A stretch of 64,000 nt of DNA from contig OZ024762.1 in assembly GCA_964016885.1 (NCBI GenBank), positions 9,362,001-9,426,000 on the forward strand, read 5' to 3'. Positions 5,401-40,382 of the stretch are shown here, piece by piece (position 1 is the stretch's first letter; each line of letters begins with the position of its first letter). Made by a program: the position numbers and the translations under genes. This DNA comes from Eledone cirrhosa. Taxonomy: Eukaryota. The notes below the pieces were generated by a model, which had not been told where the DNA came from, did not search any database, and saw only the letters and a list, made by a program, of their open reading frames with translations.

Positions 5401-5619
5401 TGTGGTTGAATCATTGTATGGCCACTATTGTTGGCGGAGGGCATGGTGTCTGCATTAGACAGGTTGTCTTATTGTGAGACAAGTCAGATCAGGTTATCGT
5501 GTCTTGTCCATAGGGAACTGTTTCTGGCTGGGTTTCTACTGATGGATGGCCTTCCTTAAACCAACCACATTTACAGTGTGGACTGGGTGCTGTTTGCTGT
5601 GTCACTAACACAGCCACTT

Positions 5620-10259: not shown

Positions 10260-10371
10260 TCCACCCTTAAAAACCCGAACAAAATACTTTTAATATTGTT
10301 TTTTTCGCCATAACATGTGTTGCGAGGGAGAAACTTTCGAAATAATTTTTGCACCCATTTTAGCGATTAAG
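10260..10371 (+). repeat. 5' portion of the palindrome-centre element, truncated at the left palindrome junction
   Basis: aaaatacttttaatattg...ttcgaaataatttttgcacccattttagcgattaag matches 34283-34371 and 31960-31995. Confidence 0.8.
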
Positions 10372-10388
10372 AGATGTATACAACAACA

Positions 10389-10475
10389 TTTAATATAGAA
10401 ATGGCTTCTACAGGTCTAGAACTGTTTCATTCGAAGGAAAACAGTTCTAGTCCTGTAGAATATTTCTATATTAAA
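10389..10475. repeat. Fold-back hairpin at the arm terminus (mirror 53461-53547), related to 60315-60348
   Basis: tttaatatagaaat..ttctacagg.ctagaactgttt / aaacagttctagtcctgtagaa.atttctatattaaa. Confidence 0.75.
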
Positions 10476-10934
10476 TTTGGTTATATAAATATATATGAGG
10501 ATCCAAACAACCTATTTGATTTGGATGTTTATGTTGGGTATGACATTTTAGTCCTGCCAAGGGTGAGGATAATGTTGCTGGTATTTTTGATAATGTTTTT
10601 CTCCTTCCTGTTGCAGCCTAGGGATACAACCAGACTCGAAGTTCCTGATCTCCAGTCCTTTCACTCCAAGGCCACTTGCTGAAATGTTTCATAAGGTATA
10701 TTGGTTGCTGAAAGGTTTACTCTTTTGTTTGTATATATATATATATAGAATCCGCCAATAAAATGTATTCACACTTCGGGAAAAGATACATATATTCAAT
10801 AATACATTTCTTGAATCAAGATATCTCAACATGGAAATTCATCTGTTGTATGTATATATCTAGGGTGGGTAAAATTCCCTCTGTCCGCGGAGGGGCTTCC
10901 ACAGGACCACTGAGTGCAGTATCAACTCTGAATA

Positions 10935-11180
10935 TCAGTGAGCATGTCCAGCTAACCTCAATCTCCTCTGTGTTACTTTCGAGAGGCTCCTGTACAGCTC
11001 AGAGCTCTTCATCCTCAGTGTATACTGATTAATGTTCAGAGCCATCCTCAGCATTGGAGCAAAGCCTGTCACTGTTTGAGATCGGACCTTCGTAAAGACT
11101 TGAAGATTCATCTGTGTTGCTGTACGGGTCTGAGACTTGGGCACTGACCAAGAGATTCACTCAGATGGTGGATGGGTGCT
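10935..11180 (-). mobile_element. RTE-X-like LINE 3' fragment (mirror 52756-53001 plus)
   Basis: MLRMALNIN...LSKVTQRRLRLAGHAH; same family as 7830-9530. Confidence 0.75.
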
Positions 11181-12615
11181 AAATATATATTTATACAAAT
11201 TTTTCTTTTCCTGAAGTGTGTAGACATTTTTTTTGTATACACACTTATTGGAGTTAGCTGTCTTGTTTCTTAGAAGAAATGAAAAAGCAAAAGTTTGGTT
11301 TATTTCACATGTTCGTCGCTAGATAAGGAAGTTTATTTACATTCCTTTGAAGATGGCAGTAGTGTTTTCCTGTGTAGAGAAGGTTTAATTATGTTTCTTA
11401 GTAAAAAAGAGAATCAGAAGTATCTATGTAAGAGGGCTGACTGACCAAATGGAAAGAAACAATGCAGTTATTAGTAAGGAGGGTTGAAATTAATGCATGC
11501 AAGATTTCACTCCTTCATAGTCAGCCGATGAGCTTTTCAGTTGACCCTCGTTTTTGTACAGAAGAACGTTTATATAAATGTAACTTTATGTGTGTGTTTA
11601 GAGAAGATTTAGTTTTGTTTATTAGACAAAGAAAGTATGTATATATAAATGTAACAGATAGAATGCCTTCATTTCAGCTGTCTGAATTCAAATCCCATTT
11701 CATCCATTCGGGGTTGATTCTTCCTCTATACTTCTCTAGAAGAAATCCGCTGTATTCAGACCTGGGCTCTGCCAGGTTTTTAAAAGAGCCCTAGAAACAC
11801 TGTAGGTCAATGCGTTGCCTCCCTCAGGAGTTACGGGTCCATACATACATGTAACTCTCACAGCTTGGAAGTTCTGTATGTAAGTCTTTAAAACCATTTC
11901 ACATTTCTCCAGTACACTCAGCGTCCTATACTCTCAGACACTTAATTCCAAAGAAACTGGTAAGAAGCCTAGAACAGACTATATTTAGGTTTCATCAATA
12001 CATATATTGATGATTGGAATCATGGTCTTAAGATTACTCAAATCGACACTAACTATTACATATATAGATCTGTCTAAGGCTATGTTACCATCTTGAAGTA
12101 TATTTAACTACATATTAATTGTAGAAACGTGGCCCCTCACAAAGACGATTGACAGCTTCGATAGCAGAGCCCTGAGGACCATCTAAAACATCAGATGGGA
12201 CCACCACGTTTCCAACGGAGTGACGCATCAGCCCACAGCCTTACTCTCGTTCAACGCAGTAGCACCTGGTCGGCTCAACCCATGATGATGCCAGTCTAGT
12301 CTAACAAGAATATATGTACAAAATACTCGAATATAAGGTGACCCTCCTCCCTATCTTATGTCTGAGAAATGGGTAAAAATCCGAATCTTATTTACGTAGA
12401 ATTTGTAGTTGGCGAAAACGGTTAAACTATTGACTCCCTATATAAGTCAACACCTTTCTACATATTCCCTGGCTTCTATTCGTGTATATCCCGTTATATA
12501 TGTACAAAATACTAGTAGTTCCTTAATTGCTATATATCCCGTTATATTTATATATAGAGAGAAACGGAAAGAAAGCGAGATAACACTCGGAATATGTCGT
12601 GTTATCTCGCTTTCT

Positions 12616-12665
12616 TTCCGTTTCTTTTTTTTTTTAAAAAAGAAAGAAAATGTTAGCTATAAGTA
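12616..12665 (+). promoter_or_regulatory. Candidate Pol III upstream promoter: TTCCGTTTCT motif plus TATAAGTA
   Basis: Both motifs are kept with 41-42 nt spacing in paralogs A (12616/12658), B' (40146/40187) and diverged C' (38473/38515). Confidence 0.5.
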
Positions 12666-12683
12666 TGCCTATTTGACTCTGTA

Positions 12684-12853
12684 GAATTGCGGCTTGTGCG
12701 TGGCGCTGCACGTAGCGCTTCTAGCTTCGCTGTCGTACTTCGGTATGGCATGACCACTCGATCGTGTCTGAAGTTCGAATCGTTGCGGGGGTCGGCCGGG
12801 ACCACAGCAGGCTGGCTTTATGCTGGCCTGCTCTCCCACTCGCATGAGTTTTT
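12684..12853 (+). ncRNA. Candidate Pol III structured ncRNA, copy A
   Basis: TATA ~26-31 nt upstream. Hairpins GUGCG/UGCAC (12696-12711), UGUCGUAC-UUCG-GUAUGGCA (12731-12750) and GCAGGCUGGC-UUUAU-GCUGGCCUGC (12807-12831). GTTCGAATC B-box-like at 12773; T5 end. The start position is inferred. Confidence 0.55.
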
Positions 12854-13647
12854 GCCAAACAATTTGACGAGAGTTATCTCCCCTTAATTTGAATTATTTG
12901 CCCTTTGTTTACATTGAACTACTTCCGGTTTGTGGAACTCTTCTTACTTTGTTGTCATTTCTTTTCAGTGTATTGAAGCGGTAACATCATTCTACTTACT
13001 CTGGGACTATTAACGATACCGGTTTGGATTTTACGTTCGTGTAAAGAGGTTTGTAAAGTTTTATTCACACTCACGAATATTATTGAGACACAAAAATACA
13101 TTTCACTATCTTGGAAATATACATACATTTAATTCTTCAATATAAATGCATTCTTGTAGTGTTTTAGTTGCCATGTCTTTTAAATTTATTCTAAACACTC
13201 TTCACAGAACTAAACCTCCTTCCGAGAAACAAAACAAATAATATATACACGCAGCTACCTCTTCTAACTAAACATACATGTTACTTTCCTCTCTATACCT
13301 TATAGCATCGTAATTTCTACGTCGAGTTACCTCGGCATCACCACCTTTACTCCAACTCAGCATTCTCTCTTGCACACATCATATCAACTATATATTTATA
13401 TTATAATCGTATCTCTATTACACCTTCTCTGTATATACTTACTTAGAAGAAAGGTATATCTCCTCATTATACACAGTATCCGGAGCTATATAAGAAACTG
13501 TAGTATATAGAATACAGTATCGTATATATGCAGCATCTACATACACAAGGCAAAGTTAAAACACTCTTCTCTACTACTTTTCCCGAGGATACTTACATAA
13601 AACTCTGGATATTTTATCAAGGCATCTATTTTTTGTATGTAGAAGAC

Positions 13648-16610
13648 ATTATAATAATAATGAAATTATTGTGTAAAGTGCTCAGGTGCACTACAACTCG
13701 TCAATATAGTACATAGAATAATACACAAATGTCAGGGAAGTACATGTGTGTATGTGTTAGCTGTAGTGTTGGCGGATCTCGGGAAGCATGGAGGCCTTAA
13801 AGGATGCAGTGTCTCGACAGCTAACAACTGATGCAGGTAGTTTGTTCCATGCTTCAGCAACTCTGAGCGTGAAAAAATGTTTCCGAAAGTCATGGGAACT
13901 GTGCTGTTTTCTGACTTTGTGGGCATGTCCACGTGTGTTAGACACATGGAAATCAAAAAGGTACTCAGGGTTGTTGTTGGCAACATGGTTAACAATTTTG
14001 TGGGGGTTTACCAAGTCAGTTGCCAGGCGTCGGAGCTTCAATGAATCCATGCCCAGGGAAGCAAGGCGCTCAGAGTATGGTAGATGCCTGATGGAGGGTA
14101 TTCGCTTGGTTGCACGTCTCTGAACAGTTTCCAGGCGGTCAATGTCCTGAGCAAGATAGGGGTTCCAGACTGGTGATGCAAATTCTAAGTGTGGTCGTAC
14201 CATAGCCTGTATACAGCCTTAAATAGATATCTGGAGAGCGGCTGACAAAGGTCTTGCTGAGTGATGCTAAGACACCCTCGGCCCTCTTGACAACTTTAGA
14301 GACGTGCCTCGTCCAACGCAAATCGCTGCTGACCGTAATGCCCAGGTCACGTTCACAGGAAGACTTCTTGATATTAGTGCTGTGGAGGGAGTATGTGGAC
14401 GCTGGGTTTTTACTCCCAAAATGCATGGTGGTGCACTTGTCCGCAGCTAGCTTGAGTTGCCAGTCTGAGATCCATTGTTGTATTGTGTCCAGGTCAGACT
14501 GCAAGCAAGATCTATAGTGTTCAGGATCTGTCCTTTTTATCTCAAGGTACAGCTTGATGTCGTCTGCGTACTTTAGTACTGTGGCATTCCTTAAGTTGGC
14601 ATCTATGTCATTAATATATGCCACAATCAAAAGGGGGCCAAGAACAGATCCCTGTGGTACACCAGATGACATCTCATATGATGAGGAATGCTGTCCCAGA
14701 ACCGCGACTACCTCTCTTCGACTGAGAATGAAGGACTTCAACCAGTTAAAAAGATCATCCTTCACACCCATTGCAAAGAGTTTTGCCATAAGCCTTTTGT
14801 GTGGCACAGAATTGAAGGCCTTCGCAAAGTCAAGGTAAACAACATCCACCCATGAGCCGCCATCAGTGATCCGGGTGATGTCCTCAAGAAACTCTATAAG
14901 TTGATCACAGCAGCTGGAGTTGGGGATAAATCCAAATTGCAAGGGCCGGATAAGACTGTGAGAGCTCCAGAAGTTCCAAAGTGTTTCTCTGACACAGGAT
15001 TCCATCAGTTTGGCGATGCAACTAGTAAGACTGACTGGACGATAGTTTACAGGTGATGTGCGGTCACCCTTTTTGAACAGAGGAATGACACTGGCAGTTT
15101 TCCACTGTTCTGGAGTAGCACCGTTGTTCAGACAGAATTGGAAGAAGCGTGATAACTGGTGTAGAAGGAAGTACCCACCACGTTTAAGAAGCAGGTACGT
15201 AACACCATCAAGACCAGGAGAGGCATGGTTGCGTTGATTTTTTAGGTGACGTCGCAGCATTGCAGGTGTAAATTCCATGGTTGTAATAGAGTCCGGTGTC
15301 ATAGGTGGTGGAGATGGTACACTCTGGTCTTCAATAGTGAAAATGCCTGAATAGCATTCAGCAATGAGCTCTGCGCATGGCTTGTGTGGGGATTGCGAAG
15401 AGGACCAACTGGAGAGTGAGGCCTCTGCTTTAAGTGAACATACTTCCAGAACACCTTACTGTCAGGGCTGGTTGCTATGCGCTGCTCAAATTGAAGCACT
15501 GCCTTTTTTGTCACCTGTTTGAGGTGGTTGGACGATCTATTTTGCCTCTTCCTATTAATGTCTGATTTGTGAAGTTTGTACTCACGTTCAGCATTGCGCC
15601 GTTCTTTTCTGGCAAGACAGACTGCTGCAGTCTCCCAAATTGCGCTTTTGGGATGTTTTTTCCGCTTACGTGGCACCGATGCTGCTCAGGATGTTCTGGA
15701 GTACAGTGTTGACATCTCCAGAGTCGTAGAACTCAAGCCAGTTTGGCCGTTGCAACTCGGTGCAGTAACAGTTCCAGTCTGCTTTATTCCAGTCAAAGTG
15801 AGCACTTTGGAGATGGTTGTGGTTCTTGTCACTGCCCATGAGGGATAGATTGGCAATGATCATAGCATGATCAGAGTCACCTAAAGGTTCCTCAGCAGTA
15901 ACACTAATGGCCGTTTCAGGAGTAGTGGTGAAGAGTAGGTCCAAAGTGTTGTCACCTCTCGTTGGGGAGGTGACCACCTGGGACCAACTCGAGTCCAGCA
16001 CCAGCTCAAGGAAGTCATTTGCACTTGGCGGCCAACGAAAGGTTTCCCAGTCAATCTCAGGCTGATTGAAGTCACCTGCAATGAAAACATAAGTGGCTGT
16101 CTTCCTGGCAGCAGCTCTGAGGATATCACAAAGTTGAGTGTCCTGATGGTAATTTGGGGGACGGTAAACGACTCCAAGTAGCAGTGTTGACATGGTCATA
16201 CGGATATCGCAGAAAAAAACTTCCTGCTGTGATTGGTTCAAATCAGCACAAGGAATTGCCGACAGATTTGACCGAACGTGTTTTCAGACCAGCTGGTGTC
16301 TCTTTTCCATGATTCGCCAGCCTTAACAAACTTCCATATCTGCCCAACATCTCGTAGGCTGAAGCTTTCATGTTCTGCCGAGCTGCGGTTTAGGGAAGCT
16401 GCAGCACGCAACTTTGGGCGGACATCAGGTGGAAGACCAGGGCGTGTTCGGAAAGCAATCCGACTTTCACGCCTAGCTTTATCAGAGGCTACAAGGTATG
16501 AACGTGCCTCAGTTGAGTTTGAAAACGACAGTCTAATTAACCTGGGTTTCGGGCCTGGTCGGCCAAGGCGTAGAGCACCCTTTGCGGGAGCACAGCACTA
16601 TCCTTCTCAA
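13648..16610 (-). mobile_element. CR1-clade LINE, 5'-truncated and frameshifted (ORF1 tail, EN, RT, 3'UTR, (ATT)n tail)
   Basis: EN motifs GVVYRPP, AGDFNQP, TLDLLF, LGDSDH. RT motifs NYRPVSLTS, YLDFAKAFNSV, GVPQGSVLGP, YADD. CR1 C-terminal VRPHLEFASPVWNPY, VQRRATK, TRGH. Split into four ORFs. Confidence 0.93.
14139..15302 (-). pseudogene. Reverse transcriptase domain of the CR1 LINE (frameshifted at both ends)
   Basis: 387 aa ORF with the full RT motif set. Confidence 0.9.
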
Positions 16611-17964
16611 TAGAGGAAAAAAACTCCCCATACATACAGTTTTTTATAGAATACACTGCCTTGTTATATAAATATTGTACACATGTGTGTATATAATACA
16701 CTTCTATATATATATAGAAACTTACTACTAGTTATTGTGTGTACGCAGCAAAGAATCTACTTTTTGTATGTAGAGACTCCTCTGTAACATCTAGAAGGCT
16801 TATATTTACTATCCTTCTCTATAATTAAAAAAACCCATATATACAGTAATGCCTTATCTAGAGGCATATAAGAAACTGTATTTCACATCCCTATACCCAC
16901 TCTCCTAAGAAACTAAACTGTTCATGATAAAGAGTTTTAATTTCTGCCTCTAAAAAAGTATTGGTGTTAGAGCTGTGTAATCTGGATTGTTTTTATCAAT
17001 ACCCTCTGCTTCTTTCCAGGTATGTTGAAGATCTCCGCCAGCTCAACTCAGTGTGTAAATACACACAGTCGTCTCAAGAAATAAAATAACTCCAACAACA
17101 AAATGTAGTTTATTTATTGATCTTTATTTCACATTTTTGTTTCTTATATATATACACAGGTAGTATCTTACATGTAGATCGTTTAACTTTCATTCATATT
17201 AAATATATAGGAATTAACAGCTGTGTATATATAACTAGTGGATTGTTAAACACATGCCTAGAGATAAAAAGGTATTAACATGCGAGAGAATTCAATTATT
17301 ATGTAATTAGTGAGAAACATCCTTCTTGAAAGAAGTGTATATATAGAATAGATTAATTAATGTGTATGTACACTATAGAATCCCAGTAAGAAACATCCTT
17401 CTTACTGAAAGAAGTAAGTGTGGTGCTATAGAAAAGTTTCTTTGAGAATGGAAACTGTATGTATATATATATATAATACAGTTATCCTACCAAGTTTATT
17501 TCTTTCTGTGTATATAGGTATTCTGTAAGAGGTTATAATATCTATATATACAGGGTTATGTGGATATTCTATATCTCTCTCATACTTACCAGTAGGTATA
17601 TGGGTATTAATAAAGAAGATTCATATTATAAACATTTATAATGTGTATATATACAGTATTCTAGTAAGTTTATTTCCTTCTGTATATAGAATAAATTTGT
17701 ATTCTATATCTCTCCCAGTATGTATATAGGAATAGAAGTATGAATTCAGTTCGAAACATCTTTCATGAAAGTAATGTATATAATGCGGGTATTATAGTGA
17801 GGCCATTTCTTTCTGTCTGTATACATATGCCTAGAGATAGAAGGGTGTTAATATGTATGGATTCTATAGAAGTAAGTGTATATATACACATGGTTTTAAG
17901 GTAATAGTATCCTATAGAATACACATACTTATCTCTATCTAGAAAAAAAAGTTCAACTCCTTAG

Positions 17965-20900
17965 CTATATATATGTATGTATATATATATACATATGTAT
18001 ATATATACAGACATATGTATGTATATATATAGACATACATATGTCTATATATATACATATGTATGTATATATACATACATATGTATACATACGTATGTAT
18101 ATATACAAGTAAGTATATACATACATATGTATATATACATGTGTATGTATATATACATACATACGTATGTGTATATACATACGTATGTATGTATATATAC
18201 ATACGTATGTATATATACATATGTATTTATACATACATATGTATGTATACATACATATGTATGTATAAATACATATTTATGTATAAATACATATGTATAT
18301 ATACATACATATGTATGTATACATACATACGTATATATACAGGTATGTATGTATATACGTACGTATGTATATATACATACGTATGTATGTATATATACGT
18401 ATGTATGTATATACATACGTATGTATACATACATACATATGTATACATACATACATACGTATGTATATACACATACGTATGTGTATATACATAAGTATGT
18501 ATGTATACATACATACATACGTATATATACATATGTATGTATACATACATACGTATGTATGCATGCTTATGTATGTATATATATATACGTATGTATACAT
18601 ACATACATACGTATGTATATATACATACATACGTATGTATATATACATACGTATGTATACATATATACATACATACATACGTATATATACATATGTATGT
18701 ATACATACATACATATGTATGTATGTATGTATACATACGTACATATATACGTATGTATACATACATACGTATATATGTATACATACGTATGTATATACAT
18801 ACGTTTGTATGTATACATACATACGTATATATATACGTATGTATGTATATATACGTATGTATATATACATACGTATGTATATATACATACGTATGTATGT
18901 GTACATACATACGTATGTATATACATACGTATGTATACATACATACATATGTATGTATACATACGTATGTATATATACGTACGTATGTATGCATACATGT
19001 ATGTATGTATATATACATACATACGTATGTATATATACATACGTATGTATGTATGTATACATACGTACGTATATGTACATACATACGTATGTATGTATAC
19101 ACACATACGTATATATGCATACATACGTATATATGCATACATACGTATGTATATACACATACGTATGTATGTGTACATACATACGTATGTATGTATATAT
19201 ACATACGTACGTATGTATATATACATACGTATGTATGTATATATACGTATGTATACATACATACGTATGTATGTACACATACATACGTATGTATATATAC
19301 ATACGTATGTGTATATACATACGTATGTATGCATATATACGTATGTGTGTATACATACATACGTATGTATATATACATACATACGTATGTATGTATACAT
19401 ACTTACGTATGTATATACACATACGTATGTATGCATACATACGTATGTATATATACATACATATGTATGTATACATACATACGTATGTATGTATACATAC
19501 GTAAGTATGTATACATATGTGTATATACATACGTATGTATGTATACATACATGTGTATGTATATACACATACGTATGTATGTGTATATATGTATTTATAC
19601 ATACGTATGTATGTGTACATACATACGTATGTATGTTTACATACGTATGTGTATATACATACATACGTATGTGTATATACATACATACGTATGTATGTAT
19701 ACATACTTACATATGTATACATACATACGTATGTGTATATACATACGTATGTATGCATATATATGTATGTATACATACGTATGTGTATATACATACGTAT
19801 GTATGTATACATACATAAGTATGTTTACATACATACGTATGTGTATATACGTATGTATATACACATACGTATGTATACATACATACGTATGTATACATAC
19901 ATACATACGTATGTATGTATACATACGTATGTATGTATATATACATACGTATGTATATATACATACATATGTATGTATATATACATACGTATGTATGTAT
20001 GTATACATACGTATGTATGTATACATACGTATGTGTATATACATACGTATATACACATACGTATGTATACATATGTATGTATACATACGTATGTGTATAT
20101 ACATTCGTATGTATGTATACATACATACGTATGTATATATACATACATACGTATGTGTATATACATACATACGTATGTGTATATACATACGTATGTATAC
20201 ATACATACGTATGTATATACACATACATACTATGTATGTATGTATATATACATACATACGTATGTATATATACATACATATGTATGTATGTATGTATATA
20301 TACATACGTATGTATGTGTATATATACATACGTATGTATGTGTATATACATACGTATGTATGTATACATACGTATGTATATATACATACATATGTATGTA
20401 TACATACATACGTATGTATATATACATACATATGTATATATACATACATATGTATGTATACATACATATGTATGTATACATACATATGTATGTATACATA
20501 CATACGTATGTATATATACATACATACTATGTATGTATGTATACATACATACGTATGTATATATACATACATATGTATGTATGTATATATACATACGTAT
20601 GTATGTATACATACGTATGTATGTATACATACGTAAGTATGTATACATACATACGTATGTGTATATACATACATACGTATGTGTATATACATACGTATGT
20701 ATACATACATACGTATGTGTATATACATACATACGTATGTATATACACATACGTATGTATGTATACATACGTATGTATATACACATACGTATGTATGTAT
20801 ATACACATACGTATGTATGTATACATACTTACGTATGTATATATACATACATATGTATATATACATACGTATGTATGTATATATACATACATATGTGTAT

Positions 20901-21828
20901 ATACATACGTAAGTATGTATATATACATACATACGTATGTGTATATATACATACATACGTATGTGTATATACATACGTATGTATGTATATATAGATATGT
21001 ATGTATACATACATACGTATGTATATATATATACATATGTATGTATACATACGTATGTATATATACATACATATGTATATATACATACATATGTATATAT
21101 ATATACATACATATGTATGTATACATACGTATGTATATATACATACATATGTATATATACATACATACGTATGTATATACACACACGTATGTATACATAA
21201 GTATGTATATACATACGTATGTATACATACATATGCATGTATGTATACATACATACGTATGTATATACAGATACGTACGTATACATACATACGTATGTAT
21301 ACATACGTACGTATATATATACGTATGTATATATATACATACGTATGTATACATACATACGTATGTATATATACATACATACGTATGTATATATATACAC
21401 ACGTATGTGTATATACATACGTATGTATATATACATACGTATGTATATATATACATACGTATGTATGTATATGTATGCATATATACGTATGTATATATGC
21501 ATATATACGTATGTATATATACATACGTATGTATATAGACATACGTATGTATGTCTATATACATACGTATGTATGTATATGTACAGACATACGTATGTAT
21601 ACATACACATGTATGTATGTATGTATACATACGTACGTATGTATATATATACACATACGTATGTATGTATACACATACGTATATATAGATATGTATGTAT
21701 GTATATACATACATATGTATGGATATATATATGTATGTATATATACATACATATGTATATATATATATACATATTTATGTATATATATATACATATGTAT
21801 GTATATATACAGATGTATATACATACAT
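17965..21828. repeat. ~3.9 kb compound alternating purine/pyrimidine microsatellite built on palindromic ATACATACGTATGTAT
   Basis: Directly visible; source of all the Y/I/H/T/V/C/M-rich ORFs. Confidence 0.97.
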
Positions 21829-23711
21829 CTTTAATTCCTTAGCTATATTTATATAATACAGTAGTCTAGAGATATAAGGGTATTAATATGTATGTAGGTT
21901 GTCTTTATATCTGTGTAGTGTAACTTCTAAATTTACAATGAAGATATGCTTTATATACACAAAAGTGTTTATATGAAGTATGCCTGTCTAGAGGAGAACA
22001 GGGTATTGATGTATCCTTTAAAGAAAAGGGTAACTGCGTACATATGGTTCTACATACTGTACTCTATTGAACACAACTTCAATATATAATGGAGGTACTT
22101 CTTCCAATATAGAGAAGAAGGTATATTATAGACATGAAGTAAGCTTTGTGTGTCATATTGAATACAGTTTTTCTATATATGTGTGTATGTGAAGAACACT
22201 AAATTTCTTTGTATTTATACAGTTAGCTCTCTTGCTTCTTAGGAAGCATGTACACGTTCTACTATGAGATGCTTATACACAACTAGAAGAACAATCGTAG
22301 TAGTTTCCTAAGAGACGTATGTGTAGTATCTAGCGAGGATGTATTGATATGTATGTACAGATCAAAACCTCTTATCTTATATATGTATGATGTTCACTTC
22401 CAGGTTTCTACATACACGTGTATAATATAAAGAGACACACACAATGTGGGTTTAGATATATTCTATAGAATACAGTTTCTTATATACAGACATGTCTACA
22501 TTGATGTTATTTACCTGTATATAGAGATGGCTTGTTTCTAATAGGTGTGTATCTAGGAAATAATTTATATAATATGAATCTAGTATACAGTGACAGAAGG
22601 TTTTTGTCTTCCTACAGTGTAAGAGGTGTCTAGTGTGTGTATATATACAGGGAGTAAATAATAAGGGAACAAAGGAAAATACTGGTTTATTCTTTTATTT
22701 CACAATTTATTTACCTTTCTTCTTGAGATAGGGTTGTAGTAGTCTCCAGGTCTGGTGCTGTTCCTTAGGAATATAAAATAGGTTAGTTGTGTATATATAA
22801 AGGTTTAGTTTTGTATCTAGTGAAAAACGTTTATATATGGATGATGTAGCTATCAAGCAGGTGAGGATGCTAGAAGTAGTAGTGAGTCGTCTTACGGCAG
22901 AGTAATGGAGCTACCATGCTTCGTTAGATATAAGATATAACTATGGTTTAGCTTCTATATTCATATGTCTAGAGAAGGTTTAGTTTCATGTCTATTATTC
23001 CAGTATGAACAAGTTTGTATATTGCGCCTCATAAGTATCTGTTATGATAGAAGGGAGACCGTTTATACATGAATATAGCTTCATGTGTACGTATGTCCCC
23101 AGGATTCTTCCTCTACATGGTTTAGAATAAATTTACGGCAAATACATAAATATGCCTGAAGTGTTTGTGAACTTACGTGAAAAAGTGTCTTCTTGTATAT
23201 AGAATATCTGTGTGTGTATTCAGGTATAAGGTTTATATAGAAGATAAAATGTGTATAGAGAGGAAGCTTGGTTATATTTCCTTACAAGTATGTATATAGT
23301 ATCGAGAGAAGATTTAGTTGTAACATGTTAGAAGAGGTGTGTATATATACAGATCATGGTTAGTTTTGTTTCATAATAGAGGAGGGTAACATGTATGTTT
23401 AGTTAGAAGAGGTAGCTGCGTGTATATATTTAGTTTTGTTTCTTTAAAAGACATGGCAACTTACTTTTGTGTCTCAACAATGTTTGTGTATATACGGCAA
23501 ATAAAACTTTACAAACCTCTTTACTCGAACGTAAAATCCAAACCGGTATCGTTAATAGTCCCAGAGTAAGTAGAATGATGTTACCGCTTCAATACACTGA
23601 AAAGAAATGACAACAAAGTAAGAAGAGTTCCACAAACCGGAAGTAGTTCAATGTAAACAAAGGGCAAATAATTCAAATTAAGGGGAGATAACTCTCGTCA
23701 AATTGTTTGGC

Positions 23712-23881
23712 AAAAACTCATGCGAGTGGGAGAGCAGGCCAGCATAAAGCCAGCCTGCTGTGGTCCCGGCCGACCCCCGCAACGATTCGAACTTCAGACA
23801 CGATCGAGTGGTCATGCCATACCGAAGTACGACAGCGAAGCCAGAAACGCTACGTGCAGCGCCACGCACAAGCCGCAATTC
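23712..23881 (-). ncRNA. Candidate Pol III ncRNA, copy B
   Basis: Nearly identical to copy A, in inverted orientation. Confidence 0.55.
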
Positions 23882-25090
23882 TACCGAGTCAAATAGGCAT
23901 ACTTATAGCTAACATTTTCCTTCTTTTTTAAAAAAAAAAGAAACGGAAAGAAAGCAAGATAACACGACCTATTCCGAGTGTTATCTCGTTTTCTTTCCGT
24001 TTCTCTTTCTATATAAATATAACGGGATATATAGCCATTAAGGAACTGCTAGTGTTTTGTACATATATAGGGATCCAATAGTTTGACCGTTTTCGCCAAC
24101 TTCAAATTCTACGTAAATAAGGTTCGCATTTTTGCCCACTTCTCAGACATAAGATAGGGAGGAGGGTCACCTTATATTCGAGTATTTTGTACATCTATTC
24201 TTGTTAGACTAGACCGGCATCATCATGGGTAGAGCCGACCAGGTGCTACTGCGTTGAACGAGACTAAGGCTGTGATGGTCCTCAGGGCACTGCTGTCAAT
24301 CGTCTTTGTGAGGGGCCACGTTTCTGCTCCATAGAGGAGAACACTGATGCATCTTTTCAGAACAATTAATATGTAGGTAACATAGCCTTAGAGAGATCTG
24401 TATTTGTAATAGTTAGTATCGATTTGGGTAATCTTAAGACCATGATTCCAATCATCAATATATGTATTGATTAAACCTAAATATAGTATATGAAGAAGTG
24501 GATTTTAAAATATGCAATGATAGTGTCGAGAGAAGGCTTAGTTAGTTACTTCTAACAATGTACCACTATGAATAAGACAGAAGGCGGTGTATGTAGATAG
24601 AATGTTTAGTTTTCCTGAGTATGAAGGGGTTTTAGTTATTATTCTTAGTAAAAAGACGGTTATATTATACATATACGTCTCTAACATTCCTCCTGTATAT
24701 GAAGGGTAGTGAAATATATTCTTGTGTCTCAGGAATAACTACGTGTTTATCGATGAATTTAAGGGACAACTGAAACATTACATACCTCTTTAGAAGAATG
24801 AAGGTGTATATATAAATGTAGCTTTATATGTGTATATTGATCTAGATAGTGTATGGATTATAGAGGTGAATGCATACACTAAAGAATGTTAATATATATC
24901 TAAGACTGTATTTTCGAGTGTTTAGCAATGAATTAAAATATACATGGCAAATAAAGCGTTCGTATAGGTAAATTAGAGGGTATTTTACCTCAGCTAAAGA
25001 ACATTTATATATATATAAATCTAGTTTTGTGTGTGTATTTAGGTTTAAATAAAACAATATGTACGTCTCTAGAATCTTTCTGTATATAGA

Positions 25091-25179
25091 ATAATTGTTT
25101 CTACTTTTGGCACAAGGCCAGCAATTATCCAGTGCATTACTGGTACTTTATTTTATCGACCGCATAAGGATGAAAGGCA
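25091..25179 (-). mobile_element. Partial SINE (mirror 38915-39003 plus)
   Basis: SINE 3' core. Confidence 0.8.
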
Positions 25180-25395
25180 TATAGAATAATGTATGTCTGT
25201 GAGTGTATATACGGCAAATAAAACATTACATACCTCTCACCATTAGTATAATATCCAGACTGATTCTATCAAATTACACGAGTAAATCCAAACGATGTTA
25301 ACAGTTTAATTCAATAAAGAAGAATGACAACAAACGAGAATAGTTCCAATCAGGGGCAAGTAATTCAAACGATAACTCTCGGCGAATTTTTTAGT

Positions 25396-25553
25396 AAAAA
25401 ATCAATGCGAGGCGGGGACGCAGGCCAGCATAAAGCCGGGCTGCTGCCGCCGCAACGATTCGATCTTCAGACACATAGAATGGTCATGCCATACCGAAGT
25501 ACAAGAGCGAAGCCCGAAACGTTACGTGCAGCGCCATGCACAGAGCGCAACTC
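25396..25553 (-). ncRNA. Candidate Pol III ncRNA, diverged copy C
   Basis: Keeps the TATA, GUGCA/UGCAC hairpin, guacUUCGguau, GGCUUUAUGCUGGCCUGC hairpin and T6; lacks most of the GGUC/GACC hairpin. Confidence 0.5.
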
Positions 25554-27219
25554 TACTGAGTAAATTAGTCATACTTATAGTTAGAATTTTATTTATTAAA
25601 AAAATATATATAGAAACGGAATGAGGGCGTGGGGAAATATCTCTTTCTGAATATATTTCGTATGGTGAGAGTTGAGATATCTACCGAATGATTATCAATA
25701 TTATACTTCGTCTCCGAAATATTTTCAGAAAGAAATTACTTTTTCACGACCGTGTTATCTCACTTCCATCCCGTTTCTATATGTAACAAGTTTAAACAAC
25801 TAGTATTTAATACATATATATATACAGAACAATAAGTATATTTACTTCAAGATAGTAATGTTTATGTTAATACAGAAAATAAAAAATGCAAACCATCGAT
25901 CTTAGTAATTAGTATCAATCCCTAATTATCTATTTTGGTAATAAGCATCTTAAGACCATGATTTCCTTCACGATATGTGATTAGACCAAAATTTAGTATA
26001 ATATATAAAGACTGTTCTCAGCTTATGACCAGTTTGCTTGGTGTTAAGTGTCTGAGAGTACAAGACTCTCCCTGGATAGTACGCTGGTCTACCACAGGGC
26101 TAACTCCTCGGCTGTGAGTACTGGAGCAATGTGATGAATGCAGAACTTCCAAACTGTGAGAGTTACATGCATGCATGGACCTGCAACTCCTAAGGGAGTC
26201 ATACAGGCCACACATTGACATACAGTATTTCTAGGGCACTTTTTAAAACCTGGCAGACCCATCTCCTCTCCAGGTCTGAATACAGCAGATTTCTTCCAGA
26301 GAAACAGAAGAATCAACCTCAATACTAGACTGGTACTTTGTTTTATCAACCTCAAATGGGTGAAAGACAAAGTTGACCTCAGCAGGATTTTAATTCAGAG
26401 AACTGAAGGCATTCTGTTACATTCATATATATACATACATACTTTGTCTAATAAACAAAACATCTTCTCTCTCTACACACATAACATATAAAGCTACATT
26501 TATATATACCTCTTCTAAGAAATTAAACCTACTCTAGACTTACACATAGATACAGTTATATATAAATACTTACCTTGTCAAATAAACACAACTAAATCTT
26601 CTCTAGACAGACACACAAAGCTACATTTATATAAACATTCTTCTCTACAAACGAGAATCAGCTGAAAAGCTCATAGGCTGACTTTGAAGGAGTGATGCTA
26701 GAACTGCGAGATATTGTGGTTAGGTTCATTATCATAGGACTTGGTGGAGCAACCAAAATTCACTGCCAACTCATGTACAACTTTATGATGTTCGTGATTC
26801 ATCGGTGAAAAGGAATGACTCTGATAGTTCTGTTTCATGTGAGGAAGACTAAAAGGAAACCTTCAGAGTGTGCATTGAACAATATGGGATATTTCTAGAA
26901 TGTAACTAATGCTAACTTGAATCATCCTTGGACATCATCATACATAGTATATATATATATAGTGTGCTTAGTACAGTGTAGTAGCTAACTAGGTATTTGG
27001 TTTTATGAAATGAAAGGGACAAAAAAAACAAACTATATATATACACTGATACTTCAATGTGTTATAAGCAATCCAATACCACTGTTGGATACATAGAGTG
27101 CTTAATCCTGCTTACACCAAAGTTTATGGATTAAGGTGGTGCAAACACAACACTTAAATAAAGGAAACAATATATGGCCATAGTACAGAAAATTCTTATA
27201 ATATATATATATATATATA

Positions 27220-27650
27220 CATCTCGGGCTGGATTCTGTTGAGGGTCTTTGCCACAAGTGACATCAATGAGATTCCCCTGTAGTTGTTCATGTTAGAAAG
27301 ATCTCCCTTCTTTGGTACTGAGATGATGTTAGTGATCAAGGGCAACTTTCTCCAGTGCCTGGTTACAGAACTCCAGGATGATATCATCAAAATCACACCT
27401 CTTCATCACTTTTGATGCCTCTCCATGGGTCTTGATCTTCTTGGTTCGCTGAAGCCCCTCTCTGGCGAAGGTCCTGTCTCAATATCCAGTTCCTCAAACA
27501 GCTGTCTGATCTCCCTGGTATTCTGGGCTGTCGAAGGTGGCTCTCCTAGTAGGGTCTTAAAATGGTCCAGCCTCTTCTTATCCCCAGATCTAACTCAAAC
27601 TCCTTCTCTTCCTTCCTGTAATCTCGTTGATCATCATCCAACTCTCTTTA
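27220..27650 (-). mobile_element. RTE-X-like LINE internal fragment (mirror ~36444-36874 plus)
   Basis: NIISVPKKGDLSNMNNYRGISLMSLVAKTLNRIQPE; nucleotide match to 8520-8785. Confidence 0.85.
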
Positions 27651-28253
27651 CACTTACATATATATATATACACTGACCTCCTACAAGGTTACATCTCAAA
27701 GGAGGTTTACACCAGTTCTTTTATCCCGAAACTTTTTCAGGAACTGTGGACAAGGAGTTTCTTATGGTTGTAGGTTTTTTGAAAGGGGAAAAAAAACAGA
27801 AGGTGATTGTCGTGTGAAGGAGGAAGATTGGTAGAGCAATGGACTCCACAGACACTGGTAAGGGTAACTTAGAACAGGATGGAAAGGTATCCATGGTGAG
27901 TGAAAAACCTAACCATTGTTTCGGCTACAGCAGCAGAGGAATTAAGTTATGGTGGGTTTGAAGAAAACAGAGTTGGATGTCTTCAATGTAGTGACTATAT
28001 AGACCAGAGGCTTTCAACATAACTGATGAGTGTTTCAGTGGAGACCAGCAACCTCTGAGGAGCAGGGACTACAGTAGTAGAGATAGAATATGCAGAGGGA
28101 ATGGCATATTTAGGGGCTGGGGAGAAGCAGAGACCACTGTAGTAGAGGTAGAGAGGGAACAGCATATTTATGGGCTGGGGAGGAGCAGAGACCATTGTAG
28201 TAGATGTATAATGTGCAGAAGGAGGAGAGACAATAATTGTGGACTAGAGCCTG

Positions 28254-28444
28254 TTGAATTGTTGATAAAGCTGGAGTGTCATCCCTTAATGTAGCAACCT
28301 TGTCAACATGAATGTCCTTGGGGGATAAACCCCTTTTCTACAGGTACTTGATAATACCACGATGCCAAATGTTGTCCATTTTCAAGAGGTCATTACTAAT
28401 TACATTTGAAGTCCTCTTTCAACAGTCAGATGTCAGTTTACTTG
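28254..28444 (-). mobile_element. Mariner transposase N-terminal remnant (mirror of 35650-35840)
   Basis: See the plus-strand copy. Confidence 0.75.
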
Positions 28445-29524
28445 GAAAGAAACAATGCAGTTATTAATAAGAAGAGTTGAAATTAATTCATGCAAGATTT
28501 CCCAGCTCTAGCATCAGTCCTTCATAGTCAGCCAACCTTCGTACTTCTGCTGGGTCAAGGCTGACGTCTTAAACAAGCCCCAACAAATAAGAAAGATTTA
28601 GAAGAGAATATACTAATTACTAGATATTCACACAAAAGTGACATTAGAATTATTGCTGGAAATAGCAGCCAAATATTTATCGCTCGACACGTTTTAAAAT
28701 AATGAAGGACACATTAGAAGATGTAGATTTAGATAGTCATATATACACATATTGGTCAACGCTGGAATCTCATTGATTCTATATACATAAGTTGGTTCTC
28801 AAAGGACCTATTCAGGTTATGGGAACTGTTTGTCCCCCGTGTAAAAATTTGGCGTATATATATACTTATATATGTCTGTATGCATTTTGTTGGGGTTTAA
28901 ATGGTGAAAATTCCATAAGGTAGCTGTTGTTTACTTTCATTGACAAGTCAGACCTGAGCGATCAAGACATATATTTACATATACATAATCAAAATAAAAA
29001 ACATTGTTAATATCTTCCTACAGAGATAAAATATAAAATATTGTATTTACATGTGTCACAGCTAATTCACCTCCGTAATTCTTAGGAAACCTGGCTTCTA
29101 TTTCTAGCAAGTGGAGCGTAGACGTGTTGCTGTTGTTTACTTTCATTCACAGGTCTTGAATGAGCAAGACAAGATGACCCGACATGTGTGTAATCGATGG
29201 TATACCTGCCGTGACCATCCTGTGTTTATATGATTATCAAGGTACTCACATCTACATCGTTGAATGTACCTTTCATTGTTTTAAAAGGGGTTGTAGAAGA
29301 CAGAACATCTGAAGGTGAGAGGCCGGAGATCGTCAGTGAGTGGCTTTAAATTAATTAGCCATGATTCTATGAAATAAAGAAGCGAAATCACTTTGGAGAA
29401 CAATAGTAATTATTATGAGGCCGGTGTAGCGATTACATATTACCCTTTGTTTACATTAACCACTCCCGACACCATGGTAATTGGATATTCAGATTACAGG
29501 GAGGTGTGGGATGGAATTAATTCT

Positions 29525-29822
29525 TTTATTTATTTACTTATATCAAACAACAAACACGGTGGCAAGGAGTAAATTAAAAAAACTCGCCTTTCTTTTAAAA
29601 TAAAATTCAAGCCTCAGCTCTCCCGTGATGCAACAGTGCGGGTAAATAAGTTGACGCTTTAGCGACATCAGTTCCTTAAATTTCACCAGACCGAAATCTC
29701 AAGAACGATAACTCTGTCTTTACTTAATCGCAAAAATGGGTGCAAAAATTATTTCGAAACAACACTTGCTATGGACGATAACGACAATATTAAAAGTATT
29801 TTGTGGATTTTTAATAGGTGAA
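29525..29822 (-). repeat. Copy of the palindrome-centre element (mirror ~34272-34570 plus)
   Basis: Matches 31960-32193 (ttcgaaataatttttgcaccc...gagttatcgttcttgagatttcgg...aggaactgatgtcgctaaa...gtaaataa). Confidence 0.8.
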
Positions 29823-29934
29823 CACATCATTATATGTATATATATATATACATGTATATATAGATAGATATATACATTTATATATATATACATGTATATA
29901 TATATATACATGTATATATAACTATATATATGTA

Positions 29935-31890
29935 TAGCATGACTCCTTCATAGGCTGACCAAGATACTCTCATGGAATGACCAAATGAGGTTTATTTTTC
30001 AACATGCAAGATTGCACAGCTCTAGCATCACTCCTTCATAGGCTGACCAAGATACTCTCATGGAATGACCAAATGAGGTTTATTTTTTAACATGCAAGAT
30101 TGCACAGCTCTAGCATCACTCCTTCATAGGCTGACCAAGATACTCTCATGGAATGACCAAATGAGGTATATTTTTCAACATGCAAGATTTCACAGCTCTA
30201 GCATCACTCCTTCATAGGCTGACCAAGATACTCTCATGGAATGACCAAATGAGGTTTATTTTTCAACATGCAAGATTTCACAGCTCTAGCATCACTCCTT
30301 CATAGGCTGACCAAGATACTCTCATGGAATGACCAAATGAGGTTTATTTTTCAACATGGAAGATTTCACAGCTCTAGCATCACTCCTTCATAGGCTGACC
30401 AAGATACTCTCATGGAATGACCAAATGAGGTTTATTTTTCAACATGCAAAATTTCACAGCTCTAGCATCACCCCTTCATAGGCTGACCAAGATACTCTCA
30501 TGGAATGACCAAATGAGGTTTATTTTTTAACATGCAAGATTGTACAGCTCTAGCATCACTCCTTCATAGGCTGACCAAGATACTCTCATGGAATGACCAA
30601 ATGAGGTATATTTTTCAACATGCAAGATTTCACAGCTCTAGCATCACTCCTTTATAGGCTGACCAAGATACTCTCATGGAATGACCAAATGAGGTTTATT
30701 TTTCAACATGCAAGATTTCACAGCTCTAGCATCACTCCTTCATAGGCTGACCAAGATACTCTCATGGAATGACCAAATGAGGTTTATTTTTCAACATGCA
30801 AGATTTCACAGCTCTAGCATCACTCCTTCATAGGCTGACCAAGATACTCTCATGGAATGACCAAATGAGGTTTATTTTTCAACATGCAAGATTTCACAGC
30901 TCTAGCATCACTCCTTCATAGGCTGACCAAGATACTCTCATGGAATGACCAAATGAGGTTTATTTTTCAACATGCAAGATTTCACAGCTCTAGCATCACT
31001 CCTTCATAGGCTGACCAAGATACTCTCATGGAATGACCAAATGAGGTTTATTTTTCAACATGCAAGATTTCACAGCTCTAGCATCACTCCTTCATAGGCT
31101 GACCAAGATACTCTCATGGAATGACCAAATGAGGTTTATTTTTTAACATGCAAGATTGTACAGCTCTAGCATCACTCCTTCATAGGCTGACCAAGATACT
31201 CTCATGGAATGACCAAATGAGGTATATTTTTCAACATGCAAGATTTCACAGCTCTAGCATCACTCCTTTATAGGCTGACCAAGATACTCTCATGGAATGA
31301 CCAAATGAGGTTTATTTTTCAACATGCAAGATTTCACAGCTCTAGCATCACTCCTTCATAGGCTGACCAAGATACTCTCATGGAATGACCAAATGAGGTT
31401 TATTTTTCAACATGCAAGATTTCACAGCTCTAGCATCACTCCTTCATAGGCTGACCAAGATACTCTCATGGAATGACCAAATGAGGTTTATTTTTCAACA
31501 TGCAAGATTTCACAGCTCTAGCATCACTCCTTCATAGGCTGACCAAGATACTCTCATGGAATGACCAAATGAGGTTTATTTTTCAACATGCAAGATTTCA
31601 CAGCTCTAGCATCACTCCTTCATAGGCTGACCAAGATACTCTCATGGAATGACCAAATGAGGTTTATTTTTCAACATGCAAGATTTCACAGCTCTAGCAT
31701 CACTCCTCCATAGGCTGACCAAGATACTCTCATGGAATGACCAAATGAGGTTTATTTTTCAACATGCAAGATTGCACAGCTCTAGCATCACTCCTTCATA
31801 GGCTGACCACGATACTCTCATGGAATGACCAAATGAGGTTTATTTTTCAACATGCAAGATTGCACAGCCCTAGCATCACTCTTTCATAGT
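29935..31890. repeat. 88-bp satellite array, ~22 monomers, with a 7-monomer (616 bp) higher-order duplication
   Basis: Monomer catgcaagatttcacagctctagcatcactccttcataggctgaccaagatactctcatggaatgaccaaatgaggtttatttttcaa; variant ttgtacag at 30541 and 31157. Confidence 0.95.
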
Positions 31891-32061
31891 GAGCCTATGA
31901 ACTTTTAAGCCTACCTTATATGCAAACAATGTAAGTATATACAAATAATTACTAAGAAATTCGAAATAATTTTTGCACCCATTTTTGCGATTAAGTAAAG
32001 ACGGAGTTATCGTTCTTGAGATTTCGGCTCGGAGAAATTTAAGGAACTGATGTCGCTAAAT

Positions 32062-32296
32062 CGCCAAATCATTTACATGCCCCGTTGCATCATGGGAGGG
32101 TAATGGCTGCCTTTAATTTTTTAAACGATGGCAGATTCTTTAGTTTCTTTCACAGCATCTTGTTCCTTGTTTCATATGAGTAAATAATTAAAACATTTTG
32201 GCGAGAAAGATATTAAAAAGACTGCCATGGTTTTCGAAAAATAAAAGGCAGCCATTATACTCCCATGATGCAACGGGGCAGGTAAATGATTTGGCA
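32062..32296. repeat. Palindrome centre: diverged imperfect inverted repeat plus ~35-40 bp loop
   Basis: 32062-~32160 and ~32198-32296 are reverse complements with many mismatches and indels, unlike the near-perfect arms. Confidence 0.85.
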
Positions 32297-32467
32297 ATTT
32301 AGCGACATCAGTTCCTTAAATTTCTCCGAGCCGAAATCTCAAGAACGATAACTCCGTCTTTACTTAATCGCAAAAATGGGTGCAAAAATTATTTCGAATT
32401 TCTTAGTAATTATTTGTATATACTTACATTGTTTGCATATGAGGTAGGCTTAAAAGTTCATAGGCTC

Positions 32468-34159
32468 ACTATGAAAGAGTGATGCTAGGGCTGTGCAATC
32501 TTGCATGTTGAAAAATAAACCTCATTTGGTCATTCCATGAGAGTATCTTGGTCAGCCTATGAAGGAGTGATGCTAGAGCTGTGAAATCTTGCATGTTGAA
32601 AAATAAACCTCATTTGGTCATTCCATGAGAGTATCTTGGTCAGCCTATGAAGGAGTGATGCTAGAGCTATGAAATCTTGCATGTTGAAAAATAAACCTCA
32701 TTTGGTCATTCCATGAGAGTATCTTGGTCAGCCTATGAAGGAGTGATGCTAGAGCTGTGAAATCTTCCATGTTGAAAAATAAACCTCATTTGGTCATTCC
32801 ATGAGAGTATCTTGGTCAGCCTATAAAGGAGTGATGCTAGAGCTGTGAAATCTTGCATGTTGAAAAATATACCTCATTTGGTCATTCCATGAGAGTATCT
32901 TGGTCAGCCTATGAAGGAGTGATGCTAGAGCTGTACAATCTTGCATGTTAAAAAATAAACCTCATTTGGTCATTCCATGAGAGTATCTTGGTCAGCCTAT
33001 GAAGGAGTGATGCTAGAGCTGTGAAATCTTGCATGTTGAAAAATAAACCTCATTTGGTCATTCCATGAGAGTATCTTGGTCAGCCTATGAAGGAGTGATG
33101 CTAGAGCTGTGAAATCTTGCATGTTGAAAAATAAACCTCATTTGGTCATTCCATGAGAGTATCTTGGTCAGCCTATGAAGGAGTGATGCTAGAGCTGTGA
33201 AATCTTGCATGTTGAAAAATAAACCTCATTTGGTCATTCCATGAGAGTATCTTGGTCAGCCTATGAAGGAGTGATGCTAGAGCTGTGAAATCTTGCATGT
33301 TGAAAAATAAACCTCATTTGGTCATTCCATGAGAGTATCTTGGTCAGCCTATGAAGGAGTGATGCTAGAGCTGTGAAATCTTGCATGTTGAAAAATAAAC
33401 CTCATTTGGTCATTCCATGAGAGTATCTTGGTCAGCCTATAAAGGAGTGATGCTAGAGCTGTGAAATCTTGCATGTTGAAAAATATACCTCATTTGGTCA
33501 TTCCATGAGAGTATCTTGGTCAGCCTATGAAGGAGTGATGCTAGAGCTGTACAATCTTGCATGTTAAAAAATAAACCTCATTTGGTCATTCCATGAGAGT
33601 ATCTTGGTCAGCCTATGAAGGAGTGATGCTAGAGCTGTGAAATTTTGCATGTTGAAAAATAAACCTCATTTGGTCATTCCATGAGAGTATCTTGGTCAGC
33701 CTATGAAGGAGTGATGCTAGAGCTGTGAAATCTTCCATGTTGAAAAATAAACCTCATTTGGTCATTCCATGAGAGTATCTTGGTCAGCCTATGAAGGAGT
33801 GATGCTAGAGCTGTGAAATCTTGCATGTTGAAAAATAAACCTCATTTGGTCATTCCATGAGAGTATCTTGGTCAGCCTATGAAGGAGTGATGCTAGAGCT
33901 GTGAAATCTTGCATGTTGAAAAATATACCTCATTTGGTCATTCCATGAGAGTATCTTGGTCAGCCTATGAAGGAGTGATGCTAGAGCTGTGCAATCTTGC
34001 ATGTTAAAAAATAAACCTCATTTGGTCATTCCATGAGAGTATCTTGGTCAGCCTATGAAGGAGTGATGCTAGAGCTGTGCAATCTTGCATGTTGAAAAAT
34101 AAACCTCATTTGGTCATTCCATGAGAGTATCTTGGTCAGCCTATGAAGGAGTCATGCTA
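32468..34159. repeat. 88-bp satellite array, ~19 monomers (inverted copy)
   Basis: 264 bp (3 monomers) shorter than the left array, from the shift in coordinate sums. Confidence 0.95.
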
Positions 34160-35649: not shown

Positions 35650-35840
35650 CAAGTAAACTGACATCTGACTGTTGAAAGAGGACTTCAAATGTAATTAGTA
35701 ATGACCTCTTGAAAATGGACAACATTTGGCATCGTGGTATTATCAAGTACCTGTAGAAAAGGGGTTTATCCCCCAAGGACATTCATGTTGACAAGGTTGC
35801 TACATTAAGGGATGACACTCCAGCTTTATCAACAATTCAA
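35650..35840 (+). mobile_element. Mariner transposase N-terminal remnant
   Basis: From ATG 35715: MDNIWHRGIIKYL*KRGLSPKDIHVDKVATLRDDTPALSTIQ, resembling the mariner HTH N-terminus, with an internal stop. Confidence 0.75.
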
Positions 35841-38540: not shown

Positions 38541-38698
38541 GAGTTGCGCTCTGTGCATGGCGCTGCACGTAACGTTTCGGGCTTCGCTCTTGTACTTCGG
38601 TATGGCATGACCATTCTATGTGTCTGAAGATCGAATCGTTGCGGCGGCAGCAGCCCGGCTTTATGCTGGCCTGCGTCCCCGCCTCGCATTGATTTTTT
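38541..38698 (+). ncRNA. Candidate Pol III ncRNA, diverged copy C'
   Basis: TATAAGTA at 38515; T6 at 38693-38698; hairpins retained. Confidence 0.5.
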
Positions 38699-40212: not shown

Positions 40213-40382
40213 GAATTGCGGCTTGTGCGTGGCGCTGCACGTAGCGTTTCTGGCTTCGCTGTCGTACTTCGGTATGGCATGACCACTCGATCGTGTCTGA
40301 AGTTCGAATCGTTGCGGGGGTCGGCCGGGACCACAGCAGGCTGGCTTTATGCTGGCCTGCTCTCCCACTCGCATGAGTTTTT
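40213..40382 (+). ncRNA. Candidate Pol III ncRNA, copy B'
   Basis: TATAAGTA at 40187; T5 at 40378-40382. Confidence 0.55.

Follow-up and report, generated by a model that had tools for sequence, protein, structure and literature searches.

The window, a stretch of 64,000 nucleotides that forms part of contig C23 in an animal genome of 3.0 Gb, carries members of what we predict from the DNA alone to be a new, undescribed family of Pol III small RNAs that spreads in an unusual, palindromic way. The family has about 200 copies, a rough sum of two partly overlapping counts (157 core matches and about 40 older copies), in at least four lineages, and we consider it probable that it represents a transcribed RNA gene under constraint. 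The complete reading, in which this multicopy family would yield a folded Pol III RNA of 150-195 nt acting as a decoy or partner of proteins, has in our judgement about an even chance of being right.

Results

Copies in the window

A BLAST search within the window with positions 12560-12900 as the query returned six copies of the family, all at the positions and on the strands given by an earlier note on this DNA. The six-member family proposed there is correct as to the number of copies, but a palindrome mirrors three genes to give the six. A and B share 97.7% identity, while C is about 78% alike and has a deletion of about 16 nt; since two of the three mirrored genes are so similar, the window alone provides two independent types.

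Copy A lies on the forward strand, with a TATA box at 12658..12665 and a predicted RNA body at 12689..12853, which extends from the G inferred as +1 up to the T5 terminator. Its start had been placed at 12684; the spacing in the U6 genes of the same genome puts +1 at G12689 instead, which is also where the 5' strand of the predicted terminal stem starts. The B-box-like motif of this copy is found at 12773..12781 (+85) and the conserved downstream motif GAGAGTTATC at 12869..12878, both on the forward strand. Copy B, of the A type, occupies 23712..23907 on the reverse strand (TATA at 23907, body 23876-23712), and copy C, the C type with the internal deletion, 25396..25579 on the same strand (TATA 25579, body 25548-25396). 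Their mirrors are at 38515..38698 for C (forward; TATA 38515, body 38546-38698), at 40187..40382 for B (forward; TATA 40187, body 40218-40382) and at 51083..51278 for A (reverse; TATA 51278, body 51247-51083). With the T-run included, the predicted RNA measures about 164 nt in the A type and about 150 nt in the C type.

The body of copy A is indeed a GC-rich island, having 60% GC against 38% and 34% in its 500-nt flanks. The sequence motifs read earlier in the six copies were recovered without exception: TTCCGTTTCT stands 41-42 nt upstream of TATAAGTA in each of them, a T5-6 end is followed by GAGAGTTATC, and the B-box-like G(T/A)TCGAATC occurs once per copy, exactly six times in the window and nowhere else there. 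Moreover, the upstream motif, the TATA box, the B-box motif, the T-run and the downstream motif keep a common register in all six. The right arm of an inverted repeat at about 12560..12625 (arms of about 26 bp; DNA fold -30.9 kcal/mol) ends in TTCCGTTTCT, and related repeats are found upstream of old copies. Since TTCCGTTTCT is the end of such an arm, and since it was absent, as read by eye, upstream of the U6, vault, 7SK and SRP genes of the same genome, it was not taken as a PSE.

Promoter and terminator

In all six window copies the TATA box is 31 nt upstream of the inferred start. The U6 genes of this genome have a TATA box that begins 30 nt before +1 and an octamer-like element farther up, and the TATA spacing of its vault genes is similar; a U6-type octamer or PSE was not seen upstream of the family copies. 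For the genome-wide comparison we used the 94 copies that had enough flanking sequence, anchored on a TATA-like word, four truncated ones being dropped. The B box was kept in 90 of the 94, at +84/+85, a T4 end in 93, the upstream TTCCGT in 84 and the core of GAGAGTTATC in 86; TATAAR was present in 89, a count that is not independent because the copies had been chosen by a TATA-like anchor. Near +13 there is an A-box-like motif, of which, judged by eye against the consensus, only the first half is present, the closing GG being missing.

Each feature of the architecture that had been claimed, namely upstream TATA box, B box and oligo-T end, is present in the six window copies and in most of the 94. 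Vault, BC200 and 7SL genes have promoters of the type 2-hybrid kind, characterized by a combination of upstream elements and internal boxes (excerpt of PMC10498592). Both the TATA-to-start spacing and the terminator persist across lineages that are about 20% apart in the core.

The family in the genome

A 20-letter B-box core pattern, with at most one mismatch, had 157 matches in the genome and the control had none; among the matches listed they stand mainly on contigs C22, C23 and C25, with a few on C8, C15, C20, C24 and C26. Three young lineages (A, C and D) could be distinguished. An isolated copy as the query gave 40 scored places out of 485 candidates, with 70-100% identity, in a search by sequence likeness that may miss relatives below the 70%-identity copies. 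The older copies are distributed over C7, C11-C13, C15, C17-C21, C23 and C24; their form is longer, about 185-195 nt, and most of them have private changes and deletions. The copies show birth and death, with an old wave that is decaying and a young wave that has expanded.

The flanks that copies have in common extend for hundreds to thousands of bases, the upstream side included. Such common flanks, containing the promoter, indicate that the family spread as DNA, without retroposition of a short transcript. A SINE was rejected: instead of the thousands of dispersed copies flanked by target-site duplications which the earlier note had set against its gene call, there are about 200, which retain promoter and flanks and have neither an A or LINE tail nor target-site duplications (157 core matches).

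No family match was found in viral contigs, and two metagenome matches were discarded as a 22-nt chance match within a high-GC bacterial reading frame. Four sequencing runs from one study covered 30 of 30 bins of the region 22400-27000, flanks included, with few differences; these runs behave as DNA of this species or of one very close to it and are silent on expression and on other species. The literature search found no description of the family, which is possibly catalogued as an unclassified repeat in a collection such as Repbase, Dfam or RNAcentral.

Palindromic arrangement of the copies

The window copies belong to a 43-kb palindrome of two gene cassettes (10366..53571), the arms of which (10366-31625 and 32469-53571) are 97.9% identical. 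Its centre is flanked on both sides by an 88-bp tandem repeat (29935..34159). An AT-rich satellite at 17966..21811, with a mirror at about 42276-45970, lies centrally in the inner pair formed by the inward-facing copies A and B; other cassettes are alike in that satellites occupy their centres. A LINE with endonuclease and reverse transcriptase frames, broken by frameshifts, is inserted at 13757..16283 on the reverse strand as a passenger missing from most other cassettes. Its mirror lies near 47.6-50.2 kb, and its presence in both palindrome arms means that either the insertion predates the mirroring or conversion copied the LINE across. Outside the palindrome, the window also contains two GC-richer tandem repeats, with units of 52 bp (4373-5361) and 43 bp (5614-7375). 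Inside a cassette, at 25090-25179, lies a piece of a dispersed repeat of very high copy number, which is likely a SINE and whose depth in the sequencing runs is far above that of the RNA family.

For 90 of the 100 family copies listed, a partner that faces inward lies no more than 16 kb away, at a median distance of 8.1 kb; the multi-copy clusters open with a forward copy in 29 cases out of 29 and close with a reverse copy in 27. Old copies on other contigs are paired as well. The inverted arms extend 84 to 2,324 nt upstream of the outer genes. Several old palindromes (C20 pairs) have at their centres a 75-bp GC-rich tandem repeat of short perfect palindromes, which in the old C20 pairs is flanked by inverted 31/62-bp repeats. 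The palindromic layout is retained on more than 10 contigs and in lineages that differ by about 20%, and amounts to an unexplained spread of a gene family whether the cassette is regarded as a host gene unit or as a mobile element.

The latter is the main rival explanation, according to which the cassette would be a non-autonomous, foldback-like mobile DNA with a Pol III unit in its long arms that serves the element and not the host, possibly by giving transcription, open chromatin or a structured RNA for a partner. It accounts better for the near-universal inward pairing, in old copies too, than the Pol III RNA-gene model, which leaves that pairing unexplained. The long inverted arms, the two waves of spread and the satellite interiors also agree with it, and non-autonomous elements with Pol III promoters are known (excerpt of PMC10886601). 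We nevertheless regard it as unlikely, if still a serious contender, because the marks of a transposable unit were not seen: at 11 of 12 loci (inverted repeats spanning the outer genes) the outer ends are ragged, with no common terminus or target-site duplication, and homology continues for hundreds of bases beyond both motifs. Three old pairs stop near a common motif, located 280-480 nt upstream and possibly an old terminus; nesting may hide the termini of old cassettes. The 53 cassette frames of at least 55 aa gave no Pfam match over the cut-off except within the inserted LINE, and they contained no transposase, helicase or recombinase; no recognisable gene was found inside the cassettes examined. 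Furthermore, the T-run terminator would end transcription after 165 nt.

The combination of an upstream hairpin and an inverted downstream motif recalls Helentron-associated elements (HINE, DINE-1), which have a 5' hairpin motif recurring inverted downstream, inner satellites, no coding capacity and DNA-level spread; their subTIRs lie a few to 60 bp from the ends and are accompanied by a 3' hairpin (excerpts of PMC7492417 and PMC4067079). A member of this class was rejected, since the family has no subTIRs near its ends, no clear 3' hairpin and no match in the excerpted oyster subTIR table (PMC7492417). In addition, unlike the elements described in those excerpts, it has no defined ends near the motifs and forms paired palindromes.

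Conservation of body and flanks

Between lineages the body is more conserved than the downstream DNA (the next approximately 225 nt) in single pairwise alignments: 96% vs 75% identity for A-D (Fisher p 6e-9), 89% vs 72% for C-D (p 8e-5), 88% vs 77% for A-C (p 0.015) and 96% vs 82% for D against the C8 copy (p 4e-5). The body is CpG-rich (14-18 CpG, 60% GC), and the flanks, which change faster, are AT-rich. Distances over 123 distinct copies, in motif-assigned groups with some mislabelled members, were 0.034 in the core vs 0.08-0.10 in the flanks within A and 0.18 vs 0.29-0.31 in the old group, flank values being inflated by alignment error in AT-rich DNA. The young C copies, with 0.040 vs 0.024-0.030, have no excess body conservation. 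Within this genome, the comparison of body and flanks thus points to constraint between lineages, the old ones included, and within A, and not in the young C expansion. Gene conversion among copies could be another cause of alike bodies.

Predicted fold and covariation

The body of copy A folds with a z of -3.04, and 1 of 200 shuffles was as good. Sense-strand z values were between -2.1 and -5.9 in 10 of 11 copies, in all of which the antisense strand was weaker; one C copy (z -0.16) folded no better than shuffles. Three elements recur in the predicted folds: a long arm, running from about +24 to +98 into a three-way junction that carries a tetraloop hairpin; a 3' hairpin; and a stem uniting both ends. 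The fold proposed by eye was right in that the body folds. Of its stems, the GGUC/GACC hairpin has been lost from the C type, and the closing UGCGGG/CUCGCA stem differs from the computed folds, which join the 3' CUCGCA to the 5' end, not to the internal UGCGGG.

Covariation is weak. The changes of G-U to A-U and U-G to C-G noticed in copy C are real, but one-sided only. No two-sided pair change occurs in the 42 young sequences (of 65 distinct bodies) that were aligned, and shuffles scored equally in 498-500 of 500; once old copies are included (27 sequences), a single two-sided change (C-G vs U-A) appears among the 24 predicted pairs, in a structure derived from the same sequences used for scoring. 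On tree branches leading to at least five copies, pairing survives 14 of 21 changes vs 8.8 expected (p about 0.02), and on small branches 70 of 163 vs 61 expected (p about 0.09). Parsimony changes per site are alike for paired (0.55) and unpaired (0.63) positions. At +9, U becomes C in old copies; the partner is G in 8 of 16 of them under the hairpin drawn by eye and in 5 of 8 scorable ones under the terminal stem, so both 5' pairings are possible.

Comparison with known RNA classes

The earlier reading that the body matches no known RNA class agrees with Rfam, which gave no hits at gathering thresholds in the window. At E<=10, the region 12500-13000 gave 24 weak matches, of which only two reach into the body, each scoring far under the threshold, and the remainder fall in the upstream hairpin region; one junk match was found on an old copy. 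There is no consistent similarity to SRP, 7SK, U6 or vault RNA (vault z 2.6, in the C type only), and complementarity to 7SK, SRP, vault and U6 RNA has no run longer than 7 nt. Vault RNA was rejected for lack of an RF00006 match on the body, the true vault cluster being elsewhere, and 7SK for lack of an RF00100 match or similarity, its single gene also being elsewhere. SRP RNA or a 7SL derivative was rejected as well, with z below 1 in 7 of 7 copies when these were compared with the SRP RNA of this genome and with the first 50 nt of that RNA; an SRP Alu-domain origin, plausible at first sight, obtained no support from this similarity test. A hammerhead ribozyme was discarded too, since the CUGAAGA-like run leaves, by eye, no space for stem II and has no Rfam match. 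Sm sites, C/D boxes and H/ACA boxes were not seen in the body by eye.

The vault, U6, SRP and 7SK genes of this genome lie elsewhere. At C3:221,183,987-221,251,257 there are 14 vault genes over the Rfam cut-off, of two types, with TATA box, T-run and a degenerate B box; vault homologs have already been mentioned for two lophotrochozoan lineages (excerpt of PMC2770079). About 30 tandem U6 genes with a variant 5' stem lie at C19:31.78-31.84 Mb with a spacing of about 1.8 kb, and in some units a repeat insertion substitutes for the DNA upstream of the TATA box. About 20 tandem SRP RNA genes are found at C12:42.10-42.13 Mb, with no obvious TATA box upstream of the one inspected, and a single 7SK-like gene with TATA box and T-run at C2:194,684,573-194,684,851. 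Considering the absence of an Rfam match and the separate location of the vault, 7SK, SRP and U6 genes, the family may well be lineage-specific and undescribed, as had been suggested.

A tRNA was rejected: ARAGORN found no tRNA genes in the window, none at the 90% threshold either. The comparison covered 13 tRNA classes, of which Trp and Arg had been picked by eye. The A type has some resemblance to tRNA-Trp (z 3.8), and a resemblance to tRNA-Arg was scored in one old copy (5 of 2000 shuffles as good) and in D (15 of 2000); neither the C type nor three of the four old copies tested show a tRNA match. The tRNA-Trp motif itself occurs in more than 40 places, confirmed by ARAGORN in one stretch, and that of tRNA-Arg(TCG) in 34 places, by motif only, with large arrays at C4:353.39-353.49 Mb and C6:63.12-63.17 Mb.

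This patchy resemblance would fit a dead fragment that derives from a tRNA or a SINE, travels passively in segmental duplications, is homogenised by gene conversion and serves no purpose, and so would the even evolution of body and flank in the young C copies and the deletions in many copies. We consider such a dead passenger quite unlikely, as the CpG-rich body changes more slowly than the AT-rich flanks between lineages, TATA spacing and terminator are kept, folding is strand-biased, and the tRNA match is missing from the C type and most old copies.

The Ro-binding helix of Y RNAs carries a bulged C. A role of the family RNA as the lineage's substitute for Y RNA and partner of Ro60 could be imagined from TROVE-domain matches at two loci (C4:12.47 Mb and C10:3.64 Mb), from a genome without an Rfam Y RNA match at E<=1 (51 of many candidates scored), from the predicted closed terminal stem and U-tail, and from a homology search that, in the excerpt of PMC2770079, found no Y RNAs in other lophotrochozoans; it is very improbable, since the bulged-C helix is not visible by eye in the predicted terminal stem, the body (150-195 nt vs a 96-position model) has no RF00019 match, the family has an internal B box while Y genes have type 3 promoters (excerpt of PMC10498592), and the TROVE matches may represent TEP1 or Ro60.

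Discussion

The claim that a real small RNA gene is present is favoured by the roughly 200 copies, the U6-like TATA spacing, the conservation of the body between lineages and the strand-biased fold; weak covariation and the missing excess of body conservation in young C copies speak against it. In our preferred reading, which takes its transcription steps from established Pol III biology, TBP-containing TFIIIB would sit on the TATA box and TFIIIC on the B box, Pol III would start at G12689 and halt in the T-run, and La would take the U-tail. The RNA would fold into a closed rod with paired 5' and 3' ends, the long arm reaching to the three-way junction, and the 3' hairpin. It might then act, in the manner of snaR, as a decoy or partner of dsRNA-binding or translation proteins. 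This function, proposed by analogy, is the weakest step of the explanation, and even if the gene is transcribed and constrained we would put it at slightly less than an even chance. A bolder reading, which we hold to be rather unlikely, is that the roughly 200 genes form an undescribed animal class of Pol III RNA spread as self-contained inward palindromes, which would be either a partner of Ro60 or dsRNA-binding proteins or the first palindromic mobile element to encode a selected, viral-VA-like structured RNA in its arms.

To our knowledge, non-housekeeping Pol III RNAs such as snaR, BC200 and nc886 are known mostly from mammals. If our preferred reading is true, about 200 constrained genes absent from Rfam would mean that such RNAs also arise in an invertebrate-type genome.

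Rodent 4.5SH, Xenopus OAX, EBER and adenovirus VA are protein-binding Pol III RNAs of about 100-200 nt. Several members of the group that they form with BC200-like RNAs are multicopy or have upstream elements together with a B box. BC200 is likewise a protein-binding Pol III RNA outside the housekeeping set and of about 100-200 nt (excerpt of PMC10498592). The likeness of the family to BC200, 4.5SH, OAX, EBER and VA is one of description only, since those present in Rfam gave no match; unlike EBER and VA, the family has no viral context. tRNA-derived SINEs and TRIMp3 (Helenus/Ajax) resemble it in the B box, the GC-rich head and the weak tRNA resemblance (excerpt of PMC10886601), but the family keeps upstream promoter DNA and has no A-tail, LINE tail or target-site duplication. 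TRIM elements with Pol III promoters have direct LTRs (same excerpt), whereas the family has none, in low hundreds of copies.

Vault RNA and nc886 are closer, having an upstream TATA box at similar spacing, a stem-paired B box, closed ends and a T-run (excerpt of PMC10498592); the family RNA is nearly twice as long, does not match the vault model and coexists with a separate vault cluster. The system on which we model the function is snaR of the African great apes, according to the excerpt of PMC3045588 a lineage-specific structured Pol III RNA with tens of genes and several subtypes, spread by segmental duplication together with its flanks and ending in oligo-U. It binds a dsRNA-binding protein and ribosomes (excerpts of PMC3045588 and PMC2094060). 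In the former excerpt snaR is about 117 nt long, Alu-derived, driven by an intragenic promoter and arranged in tandem arrays, whereas our family, likened to it without claiming any sequence relationship, has a predicted RNA of 150-195 nt, an upstream TATA box and about 200 copies in inward palindromic pairs.
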